A stretch of 64,000 nucleotides of DNA from Arenicellales bacterium (GTDB lineage Bacteria; Pseudomonadota; Gammaproteobacteria; Arenicellales; Poriferihabitantaceae), in the NCBI GenBank assembly GCA_963693025.1, contig OY843749.1, forward strand, positions 2,957,617 to 3,021,616, given 5' to 3'. The number at the start of each line of letters is the position of its first letter. Positions within the stretch are counted from its first letter, which is position 1. Both the position numbers and the translations under genes were made by a program. Below the pieces are notes generated by a model. The model did no database searches. It was given only the letters and a program-made list of their open reading frames with translations, and was not told where the DNA came from. This document shows positions 1,402 through 58,846 of the stretch, in pieces.

Positions 1402-1708
1402 CGTCATTCGAACGGTAGAAAAATAACCAACACCCCGTCATTCTCGAATGATAGAAAAATAGGGAGCGCCAGCGACCATATTTTTCATCACCTTCGGGAA
1501 TCTCCCTAAGGCTAGCGTGGACTTTACCGAAGCCCCTGCCAACCTTAGGGAGATTCCCGAGGACGCAAGTGTCCGGTAAGCCGCCGCTTAAAAGAAAAAG
1601 CGCGGCGGCAACGGACACTAACGCTCGAGAATGACGGGTATTTGGGAATGACGGGTACTTGGGAATGACGAGTACTTGGGAATGACGCGTACTTGGGAAT
1701 GACGGGGG
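1402..1708. repeat. MITE-like modular palindromic repeat, copy 1 (T-end to S-end orientation) with flanking end-module and tandem tail
   Basis: The core 1436..1636 (201 bp) has two ends. The T end is CGTCATTCTCGAATGATAGAAAAATAGGGAGC and the S end is ...GTGTCCGGTAAGCCGCCGC-loop-GCGGCGGCAACGGACACTAACGCTCGAGAATGACG. An internal 16-bp inverted repeat GGGAATCTCCCTAAGG/CCTTAGGGAGATTCCC is present. The same element is seen at 6 other sites in the window. Confidence 0.9.
1627..1708. repeat. 17-bp tandem repeat (4 full units plus 1 partial) of the repeat terminus GGGAATGACGNGTACTT
   Basis: Units at 1627-1643, 1644-1660, 1661-1677 and 1678-1694, plus a partial unit at 1695-1708. They differ only at 1-3 positions. 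Confidence 0.9.
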
Positions 1709-10603: not shown

Positions 10604-11704
10604 ATGTCAAGTATGAACACCGAGCACTGGCGCGCCAGGGCGCTGATTGACGCGCGCGCGTTGCGCCATAATCTCGCGCTGGTTCGCCAACTGGCGCCCG
10701 GCTGCCGCGTGATGGCGGTCATCAAGTCGAACGCATACGGGCACGGCATGGCGGCGGTCAGCCGGGAAATCGCGGGGCGGGTGGATGCGTTTGCGGTGGC
10801 GACGCTGCAGGAAGGCATCGATTGCCGCAACGCCAATCCGGCGACGCCGGTGACGGTGTTGTCCGGCTTGCAGCAGCCGGCGGCGCTGGACTTGTGCCGG
10901 CGGTATCGGTTGGACCCGGTCTTGCATGCCGACGAACACCTGCGCTGGGTCGAGCAATATCGCGGTGCGCCGCTGGCGCCGTGGCTCAAAATCGATACCG
11001 GTATGAACCGGCTGGGCATTGCGCCGGGGCGGGTCGCCGAGGCGGTCGCCCGCTTGCGTCGCAACAAACGGGTCGGGAGCATCCGCCTGATGTCGCACTT
11101 GGCAAACGCCGACGACACCGAAGACGCGCATTCGGCGGCGCAGTTAAAGCGCTTCAAGCAGGCGAGCGATGCGTATGAAATGGAGCGCAGTCTTGCCAAT
11201 TCCGCCGGGGTGATGCGCTGGCAGAAAACGCATTTTGAGTGGGTCAGACCGGGCATTATGCTGTATGGCGGCTCGCCGTTGCGCGGGTATTTGGGTCCCC
11301 AACTGGGCTTGCAACCGGTCATGCAACTGGAGGCGCGATTGCTGGCAATCAAAACCGTGGCGAAGGGTCAGCCGGTCGGCTACGGCGGCGTTTTTGTCGC
11401 GCCCAAATCATTGCGGCTTGGCGTGGTCGGCTTCGGTTACGGGGACGGCTATCCGCGACTCCTCAGGCCGACTGCCGAGGTGTTGATTGACGGCGAGCGC
11501 GCGCCGGTGGTTGGCAGGGTTGCGATGGACATGACCACGGTGGATTTGTCGCGCTGCGCGGATGCCGCCATCGGCGACAAGGTGGTGCTGTGGGGCAACG
11601 GGCTGAGCGTCGATGAAGTGGCGAATTGGGCTGGCACCATTTCCTATGAATTGCTGTGCAAGGTCAGCGAGCGCGTGCCGCGAGCCACCCTGCAGGCGGA
11701 GTAG
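10604..11704 (+). CDS. alr: alanine racemase
   Basis: The PLP-lysine motif region VIKSNAYGHG is present. Length is 366 aa, and the gene sits downstream of dnaB as in many gammaproteobacteria. Confidence 0.9.
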   Translation: MSSMNTEHWRARALIDARALRHNLALVRQLAPGCRVMAVIKSNAYGHGMAAVSREIAGRVDAFAVATLQEGIDCRNANPATPVTVLSGLQQPAALDLCRRYRLDPVLHADEHLRWVEQYRGAPLAPWLKIDTGMNRLGIAPGRVAEAVARLRRNKRVGSIRLMSHLANADDTEDAHSAAQLKRFKQASDAYEMERSLANSAGVMRWQKTHFEWVRPGIMLYGGSPLRGYLGPQLGLQPVMQLEARLLAIKTVAKGQPVGYGGVFVAPKSLRLGVVGFGYGDGYPRLLRPTAEVLIDGERAPVVGRVAMDMTTVDLSRCADAAIGDKVVLWGNGLSVDEVANWAGTISYELLCKVSERVPRATLQAE

Positions 11705-11705
11705 A

Positions 11706-13067
11706 ATGGCGAAACCTAAAAAAACCTATCACTGCGCCGAGTGCGGCGCCGACAGCCCGAAGTGGGCGGGGCAGTGCGGCGAGTGCGGCGCGTGGAATAC
11801 GCTGGTCGAGCGCGCCGCGGCGCCGGACGTTTCGTCGCCCAGCCGCTTCGCCGGCTTCGCGCCGGCTTCCGTGGCGCAGGCGCTCGACCAAATAGACATC
11901 TCCGAAGTCAACCGGTTGTCCAGCGGCAGCGCCGAATTCGACCGCGTGCTCGGCGGCGGCTTGGTGTGCGGCTCCACCGTGCTGATTGGCGGCGACCCCG
12001 GCATCGGCAAATCGACCCTGTTGCTGCAACACCTGTCCATCATCAGCCGCGACTTGCCGGTGCTGTATGTCAGCGGCGAGGAATCCACCGAGCAACTCGC
12101 GTTGCGCGCCAAGCGGTTGGAACTGAGCAGCGGTCGCCTCAAAGTGATGGCAGAGACGCGCTTGGAAACGCTGCTCGAAACCGCGCACAAGGAAGCGCCG
12201 GCGGTGCTGGTGGCGGACTCGATTCAGACCCTGTATAGCGAGGCGGCCACGCAGGCGCCGGGCAGCGTGTCGCAGGTGCGCGAGTGCGCGGCGCGGCTGG
12301 TGCGCTACGCCAAGCAAAGCGGCTGCACCGTGCTGCTGGTCGGCCACGTGACCAAAGAGGGCGCGCTCGCCGGACCGCGCATTCTGGAGCACATGGTGGA
12401 CAGCGTGCTGTATTTTGAGGGCGACAGCGCGAGTTCGTTTCGCCTCATCCGCGCCTTCAAGAACCGCTTCGGCGCGGTCAACGAAATCGGCGTGTTTGCG
12501 ATGACCGAGCAGGGCTTGAAGGACGTCGCCAACCCCTCGGCGATGTTCGTCAGCCGGCAGGGCGCGTCGCGCCCCGGCAGCGTGGTGCTGGCGACGCAGG
12601 AAGGAACCCGCCCGCTGCTGGTCGAGGTGCAGGCGCTGGTCGCCGACAGCGCGCTCGCCAATCCGCGCCGCCTGTGCGTCGGCCTGGAACACAACCGGCT
12701 CGCCATGCTACTGGCGGTGGCGCACCGCCACGCCGGCATTTCCCTCAACAGTTACGATGTCTTCGCCAACGTGGTCGGCGGCGTGCGTGTGACCGAAACC
12801 GGCGCCGACCTGGCGCTGCTCATCGCGATTTTGTCAAGCGTCAAAAACCGCCCCGCCGGCGCCGACTTGGTGGTCTTCGGCGAAGTCGGATTGTCGGGCG
12901 AACTCCGCCCCGTGCAACGCGGACTGGAGCGCATCCGCGAAGCGCAGAAACTCGGCTTCGAACGCGCGCTGATTCCGAGAGCCAATAAACCAAAAGACCC
13001 GCCCAAAGGCATCGAGTTAATCGCGGCGCGCAAGGTTGAAGATGCGCTCGTCATTCTCGAACAGTAG
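11706..13067 (+). CDS. radA: DNA repair protein RadA/Sms
   Basis: From ATG 11706: a zinc ribbon YHCAECGADSPKWAGQCGECGAWNT, Walker A GGDPGIGKST, the KNRFG motif, and a Lon-like C-terminal domain. The last 6 codons and the stop lie in a repeat end-module. Confidence 0.93.
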   Translation: MAKPKKTYHCAECGADSPKWAGQCGECGAWNTLVERAAAPDVSSPSRFAGFAPASVAQALDQIDISEVNRLSSGSAEFDRVLGGGLVCGSTVLIGGDPGIGKSTLLLQHLSIISRDLPVLYVSGEESTEQLALRAKRLELSSGRLKVMAETRLETLLETAHKEAPAVLVADSIQTLYSEAATQAPGSVSQVRECAARLVRYAKQSGCTVLLVGHVTKEGALAGPRILEHMVDSVLYFEGDSASSFRLIRAFKNRFGAVNEIGVFAMTEQGLKDVANPSAMFVSRQGASRPGSVVLATQEGTRPLLVEVQALVADSALANPRRLCVGLEHNRLAMLLAVAHRHAGISLNSYDVFANVVGGVRVTETGADLALLIAILSSVKNRPAGADLVVFGEVGLSGELRPVQRGLERIREAQKLGFERALIPRANKPKDPPKGIELIAARKVEDALVILEQ

Positions 13068-13284
13068 AAAAATACCAACTACCCGTCATTCTCGAGCGTT
13101 AGTGTCCGTTTGCCGCCGCGCTTTTTCTTTTTAAGCGGCGGCTTACGGACACTTGCGTCCTCGGGAATCTCCCTAAGGTTGGCACGGGCTTTGTTGAAAT
13201 TCACGGTAGCCTTAGGGAGATTCCCGAATCGAAGAAAATATGGTCGCCTATCGGCTCCCTATTTTCTACCGTTCGAGAATGACG
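13049..13284. repeat. MITE-like repeat, copy 2 (end-module at 13049-13075 plus core 13084-13284, S-end to T-end)
   Basis: The core is 201 bp with terminal inverted repeats CGTCATTCTCGAGCG / CGTTCGAGAATGACG. It has the GCCGCCGC/GCGGCGGC hairpin and a perfect 16-bp GGGAATCTCCCTAAGG/CCTTAGGGAGATTCCC hairpin. Confidence 0.9.
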
Positions 13285-13359
13285 AGGTGGTTGTTTTTTG
13301 TTTGTCAACTTTGCCTTGATAGTCCCCGGTATTTTTGATGCACGACTAAGCGAACGCCG

Positions 13360-15497: not shown

Positions 15498-15871
15498 TCG
15501 TCATTCAAAAACCAATACCTCGTCATTCTCGAACGGTAGAAAATAGGGAGCCGACAGGCGACCATATTTTGTTTGTATCATCCCTGATACAAACCCTTCG
15601 GGCTACGCGAAAATCCGCTCCCGGCGGATTTTTCTTCGATTCGGGAATCTCGTCCCGTTTGACGTGGTCTTGAACGAAGCGACACTAAGACACTGTATGG
15701 ATTCCCGCTCAAAAGACTGCCGGAATGGCGGCTTACTCGCCGCCTGCTTCGCTCGCTCCGTTTGAACTCAGCGCCAGTCTGAGGGAGATTCCCGAGGTCG
15801 TAAGTGTCCGTAAGCCGCCGCTTAAAAGAAAAAGCGCGGCGGCAAACGGACACTAACGCTCGAGAATGACG
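15498..15871. repeat. MITE-like repeat, copy 3 (enlarged variant carrying a nested insert)
   Basis: The core is 15521..15871 (351 bp). T end CGTCATTCTCGAACGGTAGAAAATAGGGAGCC; S end ...GCGGCGGCAAACGGACACTAACGCTCGAGAATGACG. The central hairpin loop is replaced by a longer segment shared with copy 7. Confidence 0.85.
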
Positions 15872-29904: not shown

Positions 29905-30143
29905 CGTCATTCTCGAGCGTTAGTGTCCGTTGCCGCCGCGCTTTTTCTTTTAAGCGGCGGCTTACGGACACTTACGTCCTCGGGAATCTCCCTAAGGTTG
30001 GCACGGGCTTCGGTAAAGTCCACGGTAGCCTTAGGGAGATTCCCGAAGGCGATGAAAAATATGGTCGCCTAACGGCTCCCTATTTTTCTATCGTTCGAGA
30101 ATGACGAGTTGTGGGGGGCTCCCTGTTTTCTGCCGTTCGAGAC
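29905..30143. repeat. MITE-like repeat, copy 4 (core 29905-30106, S to T, plus extra partial T module)
   Basis: The 202-bp core is nearly identical to copy 2. It is followed by GGCTCCCTGTTTTCTGCCGTTCGAGACGA. Confidence 0.9.
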
Positions 30144-33023: not shown

Positions 33024-33158
33024 GGATGATTCACGACGGCAAATTGTTCACGACGGGCAACCTGATACTATACGCGCCTTTGCTTTCGCGGAACAAATAA
33101 ATTGCAGGATTGTCGCTTCTCGTCGTCATCGTCGCCGTCATCGCCGTCGCCGCCGCCA

Positions 33159-34361
33159 ATGAGCGCGCCGGAAAAAAAGGCGGTGTCGGCGCTCGCCGGC
33201 ATCTTCGCGTTGCGGATGTTCGGCTTGTTTCTGCTGCTGCCGGTGCTGGCAATCTACGCCGCCCGGCTGCCCGCGAGCACGCCGCTGCTGGTCGGCCTGG
33301 CGCTCGGCGTCTATGGGCTCACCCAGGGGCTGTTCCAAATCGCCTTCGGAATCGCCTCCGACCGCTTTGGCCGCAAGCCGGTGATTACCGCCGGATTGCT
33401 GGTGTTCGCCGCCGGCAGCCTCATTGCGGCGCTGGCGGACAACATCGGCGCGCTCATCATCGGCAGGGCGATTCAAGGCGCCGGGGCGGTCTCGGCGGCG
33501 GCGCTGGCGCTGACCGCCGACCTCACCTCGGAAGCGCAGCGCACCAAAGCGATGGCGGTGATTGGCGTCAGCATCGGCGCCGTCTTCCTGCTCTCGCTGA
33601 TGCTCGCCCCGCCGCTACAAGGCATCATCGGCGTGGCGGGCATTTTCTGGCTGGGCGCGGCGCTGGCGCTGGCGGCGGTCGGGGTGTTGTGGCGCTGGGT
33701 GCCTGAGCCGGACGCCTCGCCGCGGCGCGAACACGCACCGGTGGCGTGGCACTTACGCCGCATCCTCGCCGACGCCCACCTGATGCGCCTCAACGCCGGC
33801 GTATTCTGCCTGCACGCATCGCTGACCGCCGTGTTCGTGGTGCTGCCGGCGCTACTACAAACCCAAAGCGGCATCCCGCTGGCGGGACACTGGCAACTCT
33901 ATGTGCCGGTGCTGCTGCTGTCGGTGGTCGGCATGGTGCCGCTGGTGCTACTCGGCTCGCGCGACACCGGCATCGCCGCGGCATTCGGCGGCGCGGTCGG
34001 GTTGCTACTGCTGGCAAGCGGCGCGCTGGCATGGAGCGCCGGCGGCGGACTAGTGGCATTGCTCGCCGCACTGTGGCTGTTTTTCGTGGCATTCAACGCA
34101 CTCGAAGCGCTGCTACCCTCACTGGTCTCCCGCACCGCCCCCCCCGCCGACAAAGGCGCCGCCATCGGCGTATATACCAGTTTTCAATTCCTCGGCATGT
34201 TCGCCGGCGGCCTAATAGCCGGCTACCTAACCACCCCCTTCGGCGCCACCGGCGTCTTCTACTTCTGCACCGTCGCCGCTGGGTTGTGGTTGGTGAGTAT
34301 TCTGGTCGCGCCGAAAACAAACAAGCCGCCAACTTCGTCATTCCCGAACGGTAGAAAATAG
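33159..34361 (+). CDS. MFS transporter (YajR-like)
   Basis: 400 aa from ATG 33159. It has 12-TM-like hydrophobicity and the MFS motif [11 protein letters not shown]. Its position between uvrA and ssb is as in Pseudomonas. The last 9 codons and the stop come from a repeat end-module. Confidence 0.8.
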
Positions 34362-34362
34362 G
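34336..34362. repeat. solo T-end module of the MITE-like repeat
   Basis: CGTCATTCCCGAACGGTAGAAAATAGG matches the end-modules at 35685 and 15521. Confidence 0.75.
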
Positions 34363-34488
34363 TAGGGGGAATCCCGAAGTAGTAGAATTCCCCCCGGATT
34401 ATTTGCTAAACTAACCCGGCTTATCCAAGCAAAGGAGCGCAGGAAGCCTGTGCTTGACAATCAATCTGAAATCAAAGGAGTTACGACC

Positions 34489-35684: not shown

Positions 35685-35926
35685 CGTCATTCCCGAACAG
35701 TAGAAAATAGGGAGCCCCCAACCCCGTCATTCTCGAACGATAGAAAAATAGGGAGCCGTTAGGCGACCATATTTTTCATCGCCTTCGGGAATCTCCCTAA
35801 GGCTGCCGTGAATTCCAACAAAGCCCGTGCCAACCTGATGGAGATTCCCGAGGACGCAAGTGTCCGTAAGCCGCCGCTTAAAAGAAAAAGCGCGGCGGCA
35901 ACGGACACTAACGCTCGAGAATGACG
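35685..35926. repeat. MITE-like repeat, copy 5 (extra T module 35685-35718 plus core 35725-35926, T to S)
   Basis: The termini and GCCGCCGC hairpin match the other copies. The right arm of the central hairpin is degenerate (TGATGGAGATTCCC). Confidence 0.9.
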
Positions 35927-36003: not shown

Positions 36004-36094
36004 GGAGAGATGTCTGAGTGGTTGAAAGAGCACGCCTGGAAAGTGTGTATACGTTAATAGCGTATCGAGGGTTCGAATCCCTCTCTCTCCGCCA
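36004..36094 (+). tRNA. tRNA-Ser(GGA)
   Basis: GGAGAGATGTCTGAGTGGTTGAAAGAGCACGCCTGGAAAGTGTGTATACGTTAATAGCGTATCGAGGGTTCGAATCCCTCTCTCTCCGCCA. Acceptor stem GGAGAGA/TCTCTCC, anticodon loop CT-GGA-AA, long variable arm, T-loop GGTTCGAATCC, and an encoded CCA. It is near-identical in layout to E. coli tRNA-Ser(GGA). Confidence 0.95.
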
Positions 36095-42226: not shown

Positions 42227-42296
42227 GGGTTGATGGTTTGTGTGGGAGTTGTGTTGTATTTTGCCATGGTTGGCGTTTACTTAAAAACCACCACTT

Positions 42297-42536
42297 CGTC
42301 ATCGAGAGCGGTAGAAAACAGGGAGCCCCAAACCCCGTCATTCTCGAACGATAGAAAAATAGGGAGCGTCAGCGACCATATTTTTCATCGCCTTCGGGAA
42401 TCTTCCTAAGTCTACCGTGAATTCCAACAAAGCCCGTGCCAGTATTAGGAAGATTCCCGAGGACGCAAGTGTCCGTAAGCCGCCGCTTAAAAGAAGAAGC
42501 GCGGCGACTAACGGACACTAACGCTCGAGAATGACG
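42297..42536. repeat. MITE-like repeat, copy 6 (extra T module plus core 42336-42536, T to S)
   Basis: The architecture matches the other copies. The central hairpin arms read GGGAATCTTCCTAA (42396-42409) and TTAGGAAGATTCCC (42445-42458), a paired C>T/G>A change relative to other copies. Confidence 0.9.
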
Positions 42537-56217: not shown

Positions 56218-56555
56218 CGTCATTCACAACAACCTCGTCATTCTCGAGCGTTAGTGTCCGTTGCCGCCGCGCTTTTTCTTTTAAGCGGCGGCTTACCGGA
56301 CACTTGCGTCCTCGGGAATCTCCCTAAGACTGACGCGGACTTGAACAAAGCGAGCGAAGCAGGCGGCGGGTAAGCCGCCATTCCCGCAGTCTTTTGAGCG
56401 GGAATGACGTTGTTTGGGCTCAGCGCTAGTCTTAGGGAGATTCCCGAGGACGTAAGCGCCCGTAAGTCGCTGCGCGACAACGGGCGCTAACGCTCGAGAA
56501 TGACGAGGTTATTGTGAATGACGGAGTAGGGGGACACTAACGCTCGGGAATGACG
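56218..56555. repeat. MITE-like repeat, copy 7 (composite: S end, nested insert, second S-like end, extra end modules)
   Basis: The core is 56236..56505. It has a 19-bp central hairpin, GGGAATCTCCCTAAGACTG/CAGTCTTAGGGAGATTCCC, enclosing an insert shared with copy 3. The extra modules reach 56555 and overlap the stop of the PglB-like gene. Confidence 0.85.
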
Positions 56556-58846
56556 CCTACTTCCCACAACGACACCGTCGGGCTCTGCACAAAAGCGTGA
56601 CGGAAGTAAGCGGGGTTCATTGTGTGGCGGATGAATAGGCGGTTGATTAGTGACTCGGCTACTTCGTGGGTCATTAGCATTCCGAATGCGGCGCTGGGTA
56701 TCCATTCGAAGTGCAGGCCGCCGGGGTGTCCGTAGTCGGTTTCTTCTAGCGCGTGTCCGGTGTGGGTGATGAATTTGTTGAGGGGTTGGCGGATGGTTTC
56801 GTCGTTGACCGAGAACACGGTGTTTTTTCCCTCGCGCACGTCGAAGGAGAAGTCGCCGCCGGTCATCAGCCTGTCGCCTTGCAGGCGCACGTTGTGGAAG
56901 AGCAGATGCGCCGGCGGCAAGCCCTTCCCGCGCGCCGCGTCCCAGGTGCCATACCAGAACCATTTGCTGGTTAGTTGCTCGTGATAGATGGACAGGAAAA
57001 TCGGCTCGGTGTTGTTGGGAAACAGGAAAGCGCGGCACGCTTCCACGGTGGCGAACTCATCGCCGTCGTTAGCGGTGCTTGATGCCGGCGCATCGGCAGC
57101 GAGTTGGTGCAGGCTTTGCGCGGCTGCATCGGCGGGCTTGCCAAACCATTCCCGCATCCAGCGCAAGCCCGTGTCGGTCGAGCCGGCGAGTTGGTTGATT
57201 TTCCGCAAGCCGCTCAGACCGCGTTGCGCGTAAAAACGAATGAAGTGGCGCGCGAACGCCGGGTCGTTGCTCGCCAGCGGCATATTCGCATAGACCTGCC
57301 GCTCGCCGCTCATAAACTCGCCATCCGCAATCACGCGCCGCCCGGTGTAATACATAATCGGATAGCCGAGCGACCACGGCGCCCACAGGAGCGCGTCGGG
57401 CGGGGTGTGCGCGCGAATGGCTTGGATGACCGGCAGCGCCAGCGTGATGCGCGGCGACAGCACCGATGAATCCAACTCGCGCGCCGCCGCCGGCACGATG
57501 GCGAGCGCCGCGCCCGCCGCGAAGAGGGGAGCGGCGAGCCAGTGCGCGGGCATTTCCAACCCAAACCGCAACCCCAATCGCCGCGCATGGCGGGCGGCGA
57601 GGGCGAGGATGAAGCCGGTGCCGATGCCGAGCGGCGGTCCCCAGAACAGCAGCCCGCGCTGGCCGAAGTAGAACGCGCTGAGGGCGAGCAGCACCGGCAC
57701 GGCGAGCGCGGTGAATGCCGCTTTGGGTTGCGCGCACGCCAGCCACGCGAGACCGGCGATGCCGAGTAGCAGGCTCGCGAGGAGACCCGTGGTGTTGTTA
57801 ATCAGCGATTGCAGACCGAAGCCGCCGAGTTCGGCGATGTCGGTCGCCACGTTGGGAAAGCCGCCGCCACCGCCACCGCTTTTGATGCCGTAGAACAAGA
57901 TTTCCCGGATGTTGCGCACGAGCGCGACCAGTTGTTCGCCCCACACGCCCGCCACGACGATGAGCAGAACCAACCCGAGCGCGGCGGCGGCGAGCGCTTC
58001 ACCGCGCGGCGGGCGGTAATACCACGCGGCGCTGATGAGCAACGGCGTGAGGCAAATCACCGCGACCACTTCCGGCGCCAGGTCCCACCACAGCGCGAAG
58101 AGTGCGGCGTTGAGCGCGGCGCCGAGCAGATAGAAATACCGCCGGCGGTCGCGGCATAAGCCGAAGCCCAGCGCCGCCGCCTGCGCGCCCAGGGTGAAGG
58201 CGACGATGAGGCAGTCGGTGTCGAATGCGCCGAGGCGCGTGCGCGTGACGAACCACTGGGTGTTGAGCGCAACCAGCGTGGCGACCAGCGCGGCGAAGGG
58301 CGGGATGCGCAACTGCCGGCAGAGCATCAGCACCGGAATGGACAGCAACAGGGCGAGGGCAATCGGCAGCAGCACGGCGGTCCACGCCAGCGACAGGGGA
58401 GTGGCGGCGCTGACCGTGGCGGTCATCCACGAGAGCAGCGGCACCGGCGCAGGGCGCGGCGGATGCTCCGGCGTGGTTCGCAATTCGTCGGTGGGCGCAT
58501 AGCGGTCGTCGCGATAGTCGCGCGCCAAGCGCAGGTAGTGGTAGCCGTCGGCGTTCAGCAACACCGGCTGGTCGTCAAAGAAATACCGCTCGCGATGGTC
58601 TTGCCACGCGCCGTAATCGGCAACGCGCAATGCGGCGCTGATGCCCAGCACCAGTAATAGGAGCAGCCACCATGTCGTGCGTGCGAGGCGGGTGGTGCTG
58701 AGCTCAGCGGTGGCGGTGGCGGTTGGCGACGACGGTTCCGGCGGCAACGGCGGCAACGTCGGCTTAGCGTCAGCCACCGCCGCCGTGTCGGTTACCGCCG
58801 ACTTGCGACCCGGCTTTCTTTTCCGGTGGGAGCGATTGGATGCCAA
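56537..58846 (-). CDS. STT3/PglB-family oligosaccharyltransferase homologue with non-canonical WWDYG region
   Basis: Four segments parallel Campylobacter PglB. [24 protein letters not shown] parallels [34 protein letters not shown] parallels [19 protein letters not shown] parallels [32 protein letters not shown] aligns with [22 protein letters not shown]. The protein has about 13 TM helices plus a periplasmic domain. Confidence 0.75.
   Translation of the reverse strand: [769 protein letters not shown]

Follow-up and report, generated by a model that had tools for sequence, protein, structure and literature searches.

An Arenicellales genome raises the question of what a family of hairpin-rich repeats of about 200 bp, with seven full copies within 64 kb, really is. 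The stretch analysed (the window) comprises 64,000 nucleotides of assembly GCA_963693025.1 (contig OY843749.1, positions 2,957,617 to 3,021,616). Window coordinates are those of this 64-kb stretch, and genome coordinates refer to C1, the single 3.15-Mb contig (60% G+C) of the genome under study, G000, which was compared with 11 other genomes of the same genus (G002, G004, G007, G008 and G010 among them). An earlier note on this DNA, made from the letters alone, had described the repeats as resembling miniature inverted-repeat transposable elements (MITEs). All seven cores that it listed are confirmed (1436-1636, 13084-13284, 15521-15871, 29905-30106, 35725-35926, 42336-42536 and 56236-56505), and so are the three features that they were said to share: inverted ends, a GTGTCCGT..GCCGCCGC hairpin and a central 16-bp palindrome. 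Nevertheless, the family is probably not the relic of a transposon, and can be better understood as a doublet form of the NTS/SRM class of repeats with enlarged units.

Abundance and anatomy of the repeat family

The genome-wide count that the earlier note had proposed reveals a genuine, very abundant and hairpin-rich family. With the seven copies as BLAST queries, 508 merged loci were found, which cover 121,405 bp (3.9% of the genome) and include 258 full-length matches. Elements of 150-420 bp bounded by pairs of motifs number 406, of which 244 measure 195-206 bp, and a 201-nt consensus was derived from this motif-bounded set. Every unit of the family is opened by the 8-mer CGTCATTC, present with its complement at 1,781 sites of the genome, whereas sixty permuted 8-mers occur 58 times on average and 437 times at most. 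Within the window, the 16-mer GGGAATCTCCCTAAGG has 12 matches at ≤2 mismatches (0.02 expected) and the 15-mer end 22 matches at ≤3 mismatches (3.2 expected); besides, a repeat finder detects each of the seven copies, together with the end modules and an array of 17-bp tandem repeats at 1624-1708. The distance between facing CGTCATTC motifs is 192-195 bp in the ~200-bp elements, which form a sharp spacing class, and 255-259 bp in elements with an internal insert of ~63 nt. Same-direction spacings of 17-18 bp and 40-42 bp correspond to mini-units and end modules, respectively, and back-to-back spacings of 17-21 bp to array junctions. The doublet copies are 92% identical to each other and 94.6% identical to the consensus.

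On balance, each ~200-bp element is to be seen as an inverted doublet of two enlarged hairpin units of the NTS/SRM type. The frame of a unit (66-86 nt) consists of CGTC, an ATTCYCGA stem, a structured insert of 45-55 nt in place of a loop, TCGGGAAT and an invariant C. Unit A reads CGTC-ATTCTCGAG-(49-nt hairpin H1)-CTCGGGAAT-C on one strand, unit B reads CGTC-ATTCTCGAA-(hairpin H3)-TTCGGGAAT-C on the opposite strand, and the central palindrome (H2) is made of the 3' arms of both units, extended by CTCCCTAAGG. What had been taken for terminal inverted repeats (TIRs) are the 5' arms of the two inverted units. Complete units are found genome-wide as 496 A units (ATTCTCGAG/CTCGGGAAT) and 326 B units (ATTCTCGAA/TTCGGGAAT), with one G.T pair each, and C directly follows the palindrome in 822 of 824 complete units. 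An inverted partner lies ≤200 nt away from 80% of the A units and 92% of the B units, and the doublet is the dominant form of the family. When the consensus is folded as single-stranded DNA it forms a cloverleaf, composed of an outer stem plus H1, H2 and H3, at -64 to -65 kcal/mol (DNA parameters), and unit A folded alone gives an NTS-type hairpin.

The NTS of Neisseria is CGTCATTCCCGCGMAVGCGGGAATCYRG, with the frame CGTC-ATTCCCGCG-loop-CGCGGGAAT-C, and it is recognised by the nuclease SsnA, whose cut in single-stranded DNA falls a few bases 5' of the NTS (Chenal et al. 2025, Nat Commun, PMC11893778). According to that work, SsnA binding depends above all on the C that follows the palindrome and cleavage above all on the three bases that precede it; the identity of the loop is dispensable, and a longer loop is accepted (PMC11893778). 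The units described here are identical to NTS, dRS3 and SRM motifs in the 5' CGTC, in the stem start ATTC[CT]C...GGGAAT and in the invariant C after the palindrome; in both cases the repeats occur in clusters between genes and are numerous in a symbiont, and small single-domain GIY-YIG genes are flanked by motifs, one of them here by the exact NTS consensus. The differences are that a loop of 4-8 nt is replaced by a structured insert of 45-55 nt (H1 or H3), that the units are fused as ~200-bp inverted doublets, that T occupies the fifth stem position and forms a G.T pair, and that the published SRM pattern and the canonical NTS and dRS3 sites are not enriched in this genome, in which cleavage is a prediction. 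The family is thus best read as a variant of the NTS/SRM repeat system described in 2025.

A classical MITE would be a deletion derivative of an insertion sequence (IS) with a DDE transposase, mobilised in trans through its 15-bp TIRs, the full-length relative having been lost or being present in other strains. Size, inverted ends, intergenic siting and high copy number fit such an origin, and the Correia elements of Neisseria and the Nezha elements of cyanobacteria resemble the present family in their length (100-300 bp), inverted ends, hundreds of copies, intergenic siting and occasional overlap with gene ends. However, no target-site duplication is found in 389 of the 406 elements, a distribution equal to that of the mismatched-flank control, whereas Correia elements duplicate TA. 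No transposase for the family lies in the window, as the earlier note had observed, and the wider search that it suggested for a TnpA(REP)/RAYT-like or IS transposase gave neither: the complete 3.15-Mb contig was searched for Y1/RAYT (PF01797) without a match at E≤0.01, the controls being matched in 6 genomes, and the ends of the four multi-copy IS families of DDE type (two IS1182-like, one IS1595-like and one rve-type) are unrelated to CGTCATTCTCGAGCG, single-copy or degraded IS not having been surveyed exhaustively. In this the family differs from MITEs such as Correia and Nezha elements: no parent IS with the same ends is present among the families compared. Moreover, the supposed TIR also starts hundreds of truncated half-units and 17-bp mini-units, and in related species it is found as the 5' arm of hairpin units that occur singly. 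A MITE origin is very unlikely on this evidence, the MITE-like mechanism of the earlier note is not supported, and the ~200-bp elements should not carry the MITE label in annotations.

The repeats are organised in arrays with a regular grammar, whose core sentence is A-doublet-B, the building blocks being a single doublet and its own half-units. Most mini-units (17-18 bp) are found outside A ends, and B half-units (40-42 bp) outside B ends; A half-units occur too, and every half-unit corresponds to the 5' part of a unit and stops near the hairpin apex. The point at which units, half-units and mini-units join is always the same, just 5' of CGTC. The ~9 bases before every CGTC are G-poor and end in AC[CT][TC], in any unit type and at all 1,781 CGTCATTC motifs. 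The symmetry of the flanks is this family-wide consensus, and no element-specific symmetry was detected when the 406 elements were compared with mismatched flanks. Nested insertion into a palindrome was considered and rejected: complementarity between the left and right flanks of the same element (7.9) is no higher than in mismatched pairs (9.0), and insertion into specific palindromes fails accordingly. Tandem neighbour pairs are head-to-tail in 39/39 cases and 94.5% alike, versus 92.1% for all pairs, so recent local duplication does not account for the arrays; as their source, local duplication in tandem gains little, if anything, from this difference.

Such arrays recall the NIMEs of Neisseria (RS modules bounded by dRS3), which are also mosaics joined at a short motif containing GGGAATGACG, are located near gene ends and have a motif that serves an IS110/Piv-family recombinase as attachment site; the Nf prophage of Neisseria (Kawai et al. 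2005, cited in PMC11893778) is such a case, with dRS3 reportedly as the site. By contrast with NIMEs, a single uniform palindromic doublet of 200 bp dominates here (244 copies of nearly identical length) instead of many RS modules, half-unit "stutters" at both ends have not been described for NIMEs, and arrays of varied 50-150-bp RS modules with 20-bp dRS3 borders were not found in this genome, in which canonical dRS3 has only 5 sites. A passive, NIME-like recombination mosaic can nonetheless be envisaged, in which no dedicated enzyme takes part, the ssn-type genes described below are mere neighbours, and arrays change by homologous or microhomology recombination and by replication slippage between CGTCATTC motifs. 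The modular grammar, the constant join just 5' of CGTC, the head-to-tail order of all 39 tandem pairs and the lack of target-site duplications agree with it. On the other hand, 35 doublets are isolated at unique loci, where no second exact motif occurs in the vicinity, and array dynamics alone does not put copies there; the similarity between tandem neighbours barely exceeds that of random pairs, and the invariant CGTC and 3' C, together with the co-occurrence of ssn-type genes in the genus, point to a protein partner. A purely passive origin is therefore rather unlikely.

Stem conservation and gene context

The earlier note had argued from compensatory changes that the hairpin itself is maintained. 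In the 244 standard copies 95.9% of the stem cells are paired, and the stem changes comprise 715 one-sided breaks, 361 G.T pairs and 87 compensated doubles, 61 of the latter in one subfamily-marker pair. Double changes affect 13 pairs, compared with 5.8 +/- 1.5 after column shuffles and 6-9 with slid partners; this excess of covariation is modest and is confounded by subfamily structure. With 715 breaks against 87 doubles the argument is weak as it had been given, yet compensated pairs do exist at the level of subfamilies, about five of which set subfamilies apart. Thus, the H1 arms are GTGTCCGT/ACGGACAC in 414 units and GCGCCCGT/ACGGGCGC in 62, with the compensated pairing GTGTCC/GCGCCC, and in H3 the pairs 147-188 (CG to TA), 152-186 (AT to GC) and 160-175 (GC to AT) change together between subfamilies. 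The compensatory double change noted in copy 6 is real; as evidence of covariation it carries little weight, as genome-wide that pair shows 1 double versus 23 one-sided changes. The suggestion that the hairpins matter as a DNA structure or as a recognition site is upheld, and it is the most likely interpretation.

Gene context was taken from our own crude gene calls (2,103 genes, 82% coding). According to these, 98.9% of the doublet bases lie outside genes, which bears out the intergenic siting described before. Arrays are present in 32% of the convergent, 20% of the divergent and 14% of the tandem intergenic regions; the proposed siting at gene 3' ends is supported by the convergent enrichment, but the occupation of divergent and tandem regions makes this preference a partial one. 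There is no bias in orientation (of the ends that face gene 3' ends, 223 are A and 214 are B) or with respect to the replication strand, judged against weak GC-skew replichores.

These data bear on the possibility that the element works at the RNA level, as a terminator, an mRNA stabiliser or a small RNA whose stems are conserved for RNA folding. Very stable predicted folds, the convergent enrichment (32% vs 14-20%) and the compensated stem pairs would suit such a role. However, the balance of A and B ends facing gene 3' ends and the occupation of one fifth of the divergent, promoter-bearing regions do not; neither does the lack of Rfam matches (Rfam 15 returned only a tRNA in the window and nothing at E≤1 in the doublet plus IS locus) nor that of terminator-like stems with a T-run, since no intrinsic terminators beyond chance were found around copies 2 and 3. 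An RNA-level function as the explanation of the family is quite improbable.

Candidate Ssn-type nucleases and the proposed spread of the doublets

Ssn proteins (cd10448) are single-domain GIY-YIG nucleases of about 94 aa, and residues Y6, Y17 and E64 of the Nm SsnA were those mutated (PMC11893778). A profile search with PF01541 detected two small GIY-YIG open reading frames (ORFs) in the genome (E 4e-14 and 2e-13), in addition to UvrC and two weaker matches. Both encode single-domain proteins of 97 aa, with Y9/Y20/E67 at the same spacing as the three residues of Nm SsnA (an agreement in spacing, not an alignment), and these features make them candidate SsnA-type nucleases. No SsnA entry was found in PDB and no Ssn model in NCBIfam; WD40 matches obtained in the PDB search were discarded as spurious, coming from a repetitive protein. 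The first gene (C1:3106585-3106875) has GGATTCCCGCCTGCGCGGGAATGACG upstream, which is the exact NTS consensus on the other strand, and a similar hairpin downstream. The second (about C1:456280-456570; L125 1483-1776) lies between two IS110 copies, with mini-units on one side and truncated plus complete A units on the other; the protein that it encodes is 60% identical to the first. Two nuclease-motif pairs may therefore coexist in one genome, the first gene being paired with canonical NTS hairpins and the second with units of the doublet family.

Related genomes give further support to this connection. In the genus, an ssn-type gene is present in G000, G002, G004, G007, G008 and G010, and the repeats were detected only in G000, G002, G004, G007 and G008, all with the gene. 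The sequence CGTCATTCYCGAR has 1,102 occurrences in G000, 301 in G004, 285 in G008 and 0-2 in the other genomes of the genus. This co-occurrence is weaker than the counts suggest because the genomes share kinship. Genomes of the same genus carry single units, CGTCATTCCCGAG-(H1)-CTCGGGAATCCAG and CGTCATTCCCGAA-(H3)-TCGGGAATCCAG, with the canonical NTS 3' flank (GGGAATCCAG), and the stem of the relatives, ATTCCCGAG, pairs perfectly and lacks the G.T pair. Doublets in G004 have the centre CCAG...CTGG.

Taken together, and reasoning from sequence, the doublets most likely serve as a single-stranded DNA site of the resident Ssn-type nucleases and behave in a way similar to REPINs. Whenever DNA becomes single-stranded, by replication, repair or DNA uptake, each strand would present one unit to a resident Ssn nuclease, which would bind the hairpin and nick a few bases 5' of CGTC, within the G-poor ...AC[CT][TC] leader; the cut is predicted there because the Nm enzyme would cut at this place. 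The family would then spread as a doublet, as REPINs do with RAYT, by nick-stimulated copying or recombination that leaves no target duplication, and head-to-tail copies and truncated 5' half-units would be placed beside existing copies in the same way. The competence genes ComEC and DprA are present in the genome, although they are too common to separate these roles.

The parallel with REPINs and their RAYT transposases (Bertels & Rainey 2011; Nunvar 2010 and Ton-Hoang 2012, as cited in PMC11893778) deserves to be considered at this point. In both cases the hairpin unit is abundant as an inverted doublet, which can fold into a single long hairpin, there is no target-site duplication, copies are intergenic, and few copies of a candidate trans-acting gene are flanked by repeats. 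Unlike REPINs, the present doublet measures ~200 bp and has three internal hairpins, being far larger, and in the absence of Y1/RAYT the candidate partner is a GIY-YIG nuclease. No strand-transfer activity is known for GIY-YIG nucleases. It is conceivable, though doubtful, that the doublet is the replicating unit of an undescribed mobility system in which a GIY-YIG Ssn-type nuclease plays the role of RAYT. A nick just 5' of CGTC on each strand would then be followed by copying through repair or replication, seeding new doublets and half-unit "stutters" with no duplicated target. If so, the Ssn/NTS system would be a selfish or domesticated mobile element, and a genome with 4% of doublets its clearest case.

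Several points weigh against the interpretation of the doublets as nuclease sites derived from NTS/SRM units. Binding and cleavage of the units by the nucleases are predictions. The published SRM pattern, HGTCWYN(0-2)YYVSBRHN(0-5)WNVSBRGN(0-2)RNCYNB (a short hairpin of 20-50 nt), has 33 matches in the genome versus 34-41 in shuffled genomes, and canonical sites are rare (5 of dRS3 and 4 of NTS at ≤1 mismatch), so this is not an SRM-rich genome by the published operational definition. Unit B folded alone has a minimum free energy structure without the NTS-type stem. The fifth stem position is G.T (ATTCTCGAG / CTCGGGAAT), while the outer end-to-end stem is perfect, and a 48-copy subfamily with an uncompensated H1 mismatch (GTGACCGT) has spread too. 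As regards the genus, G010 has the gene and no detected repeats, in an assembly that is 86% complete and split into 370 contigs. Besides, exact-protein matching found no contig of the same species for a comparison of filled and empty sites. DNA joining is not a known activity of GIY-YIG nucleases, and the copying step is a conjecture.

The question of how thousands of NTS-like sites multiply and that of their role outside Neisseria were left open in 2025 (Chenal et al., PMC11893778). The present genome is informative on both counts: a structured insert of 50 nt in the loop is compatible with the NTS frame, and amplification concerns an inverted doublet, as it does in REPINs, and leaves no target duplication. 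Besides, since the published pattern misses the whole family, SRM-type repeats are probably under-counted in genome surveys.

Regarding the search for other occurrences of the family, a 16-mer scan of public genomes gave only single chance matches in unrelated genomes, and simulated empty sites searched in the same genome matched other repeat arrays only. One metagenome scan returned RadA relatives of ≤65% identity and no filled-versus-empty pair. The radA product of the window is 74-76% identical to RadA of 'Candidatus Poriferihabitaceae' and Arenicellales metagenome-assembled genomes, which places the host among the gammaproteobacteria, in a clade of sponge symbionts.

Insertion sequences that land in the repeats

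The multi-copy IS families of the genome are an IS110-family element, the two IS1182-like families, the IS1595-like and the rve-type families, and there are 13 genes for DEDD transposases. The IS110-family element (1,210 bp) is inserted in 11/11 copies at CGTCAT(T)^TCTCGAGCG of the A end, in one orientation, and in no case in a B end. All these copies lie outside the window, at G000:C1 35813-37022, 37869-39078, 42800-44009, 46088-47297, 454956-456165, 457083-458292, 599294-600503, 811601-812810, 901487-902696, 934534-935743 and 2036775-2037984. The 243-nt region upstream of its transposase contains GTCATT and, 18 nt later, CGTTCGAGA, which match one side of the site each, on opposite strands, and resemble the target loop of a bridge RNA, as far as matches of 6 and 9 nt allow. 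The element thus appears to be programmed to land in the repeat. The guide-like CGTTCGAGA is fully complementary to the B end and can pair with the A end only through a G.U pair, though all insertions are in A ends.

IS621 and other members of the IS110 family are reported to insert into REP sequences by means of a bridge RNA (Durrant et al. 2024; Hiraizumi et al. 2024). The present element is similar in having a DEDD transposase and a non-coding upstream region with short matches to both sides of the site, and in its fixed position and orientation in a repeat; it differs in that the target is the end of an NTS-like unit and not a REP, and in that the guide RNA is a suggestion from the short matches, with no Rfam model match. 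It might be supposed that the IS110-family recombinase mobilised or even created the repeats, through a guide RNA that recognises their ends, by recombining these ends or by moving doublets as passengers. The constant site and orientation of the 11 copies and the paired matches upstream speak for such a role. However, the doublets contain no IS-end sequence, and the IS copies are ~98% identical compared with 92% for the doublets, so the repeats are older than the spread of the IS; moreover, insertion of IS110 type is simple and site-specific, which accounts for the landing of the IS and not for the repeats. The IS110-family element as their origin is exceedingly unlikely.

The repeats are a landing site for the two IS1182-like families (ends CAGCCCGTGCAAAAACTC) as well. 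In family B (G000:C1 258689-260286, 2864756-2866353, 2429842-2431439 and 2727685-2729282) 3/5 copies are located at one point of the H3 loop, and in family C (G000:C1 44181-45789 and relatives) 4/5 copies lie in or beside dRS3-like (N-type) hairpin modules. The genome also contains giant internally repeated regions of up to 32 kb with >80% mutual identity (G000:C1 314-420 kb, 1.986-1.997 Mb and 2.48-2.55 Mb), which are probably repetitive surface-protein genes.

The extra end modules that had been reported beside several copies measure 30-40 bp and are present in the window at 1402, 13049, 34336, 35685 and 42294. Copy 1 (1436..1636, minus strand) is a standard doublet with its unit A on the minus strand, the B end to the left and the A end to the right. 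It is preceded by a solo B end module (1402..1435, plus strand), composed of the 5' half of unit B plus the joint, and by a further GAATGACG at 1367-1374 that shares positions with the stop of the upstream gene (gene end at 1372). Outside the A end of copy 1 there are four 17-bp mini-units in tandem (GGGAATGACG + NGTACTT; 1637..1708, minus strand).

The reference doublet is copy 2 (13084..13284, plus strand), with the A end left and the B end right; its 201-bp core runs from CGTCATTCTCGAGCG to CGTTCGAGAATGACG and is preceded by a 35-nt end module. Its unit A (13084..13169, plus strand) comprises CGTC, ATTCTCGAG, the H1 insert (13102-13152, GTGTCCGT..GCCGCCGC..ACGGACAC), CTCGGGAAT and C. The central palindrome H2 (13163..13225), with GGGAATCTCCCTAAGG (13163-13178), a 31-nt loop and CCTTAGGGAGATTCCC (13210-13225), joins the 3' arms of the two units. 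Unit B (13219..13284), read on the minus strand, comprises CGTC, ATTCTCGAA, the H3 insert (about 13234-13266), TTCGGGAAT and C. The end module before copy 2 is a solo B end module (CGTCATTCTCGAACAGTAGAAAAATACC...; 13049..13083, plus strand) in which radA (11613-13067) ends, its final codons (VILEQ) and its stop being part of the module. The radA tail at 13049-13067 (...ALVILEQ*) keeps the length and the I-L-E of the tails of relatives (...AIQILEV*, ...VLAVFEV*), and is either a constrained replacement or the product of joining through microhomology. Past the B end of copy 2 there is a G/T-rich tail (AGGTGGTTGTTTTTTGTTTGTCAAC; 13285..13312, plus strand), with similar tails at unrelated loci. 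Its part TTGTTTTTTGTTTGTCAAC (13294-13312) has 62 matches at ≤2 mismatches, just beyond B ends, for example at G000:C1 284793-284822, 1734954-1734983 and 2330536-2330565, and its complement holds a perfect TTGACA.

Copy 3 (15521..15871, minus strand) adjoins a mini-unit (15499..15520, plus strand) and is a 351-bp doublet with two inserts, a three-hairpin module of 63 nt in H3 (15571-15633) and a module with a dRS3-like hairpin in the H2 loop (15701-15726). The 63-nt module of small hairpins (GTTTGTATCATCCCTGATACAAAC ... AAAATCCGCTCCCGGCGGATTTT) is a clean insertion inside H3 and has about 63 copies genome-wide. Copy 4 (29905..30106, plus strand) is a standard doublet between convergent genes, followed by a degenerate B-solo remnant (...GGCTCCCTGTTTTCT). 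A solitary B end module (34336..34367, plus strand) overlaps the 3' end of the ORF 33102-34361. Copy 5 (35725..35926, minus strand), also standard, has a solo B end module beside it (35685..35724, plus strand) and ends 78 nt upstream of a tRNA gene (36004-36091). The standard copy 6 (42336..42536, minus strand), with a degenerate solo B end module at its side (42294..42335, plus strand), is the one with the H2 double change GGGAATCTTCC / GGAAGATTCCC.

Copy 7 (56236..56505, plus strand) had been described as a copy with an extended stem. Its complementary variant is real, but it is not a standard copy: it is a 270-bp A-A' doublet of two "left-type" units, belonging to a different subfamily, whose right-hand unit is the compensated H1 variant GCGCCCGT/ACGGGCGC and whose H2 loop holds a module with the dRS3-like hairpin ATTCCCGCAGTCTTTTGAGCGGGAAT (56380-56405). 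Outside it lie a mini-unit (56218..56235, plus strand) and, on the other side, a mini-unit plus a truncated A end (56506..56555, minus strand) that overlaps the 3' end of the minus-strand gene 56537-58846. In the dRS3-like modules of the window (56380-56409 and 15701-15726) the base after the palindrome is G, not C; this module (ATTCCCGCAGTCTTTTGAGCGGGAAT, then GACG) is located in the central loop of the ~263-bp variants, with about 63 copies genome-wide.

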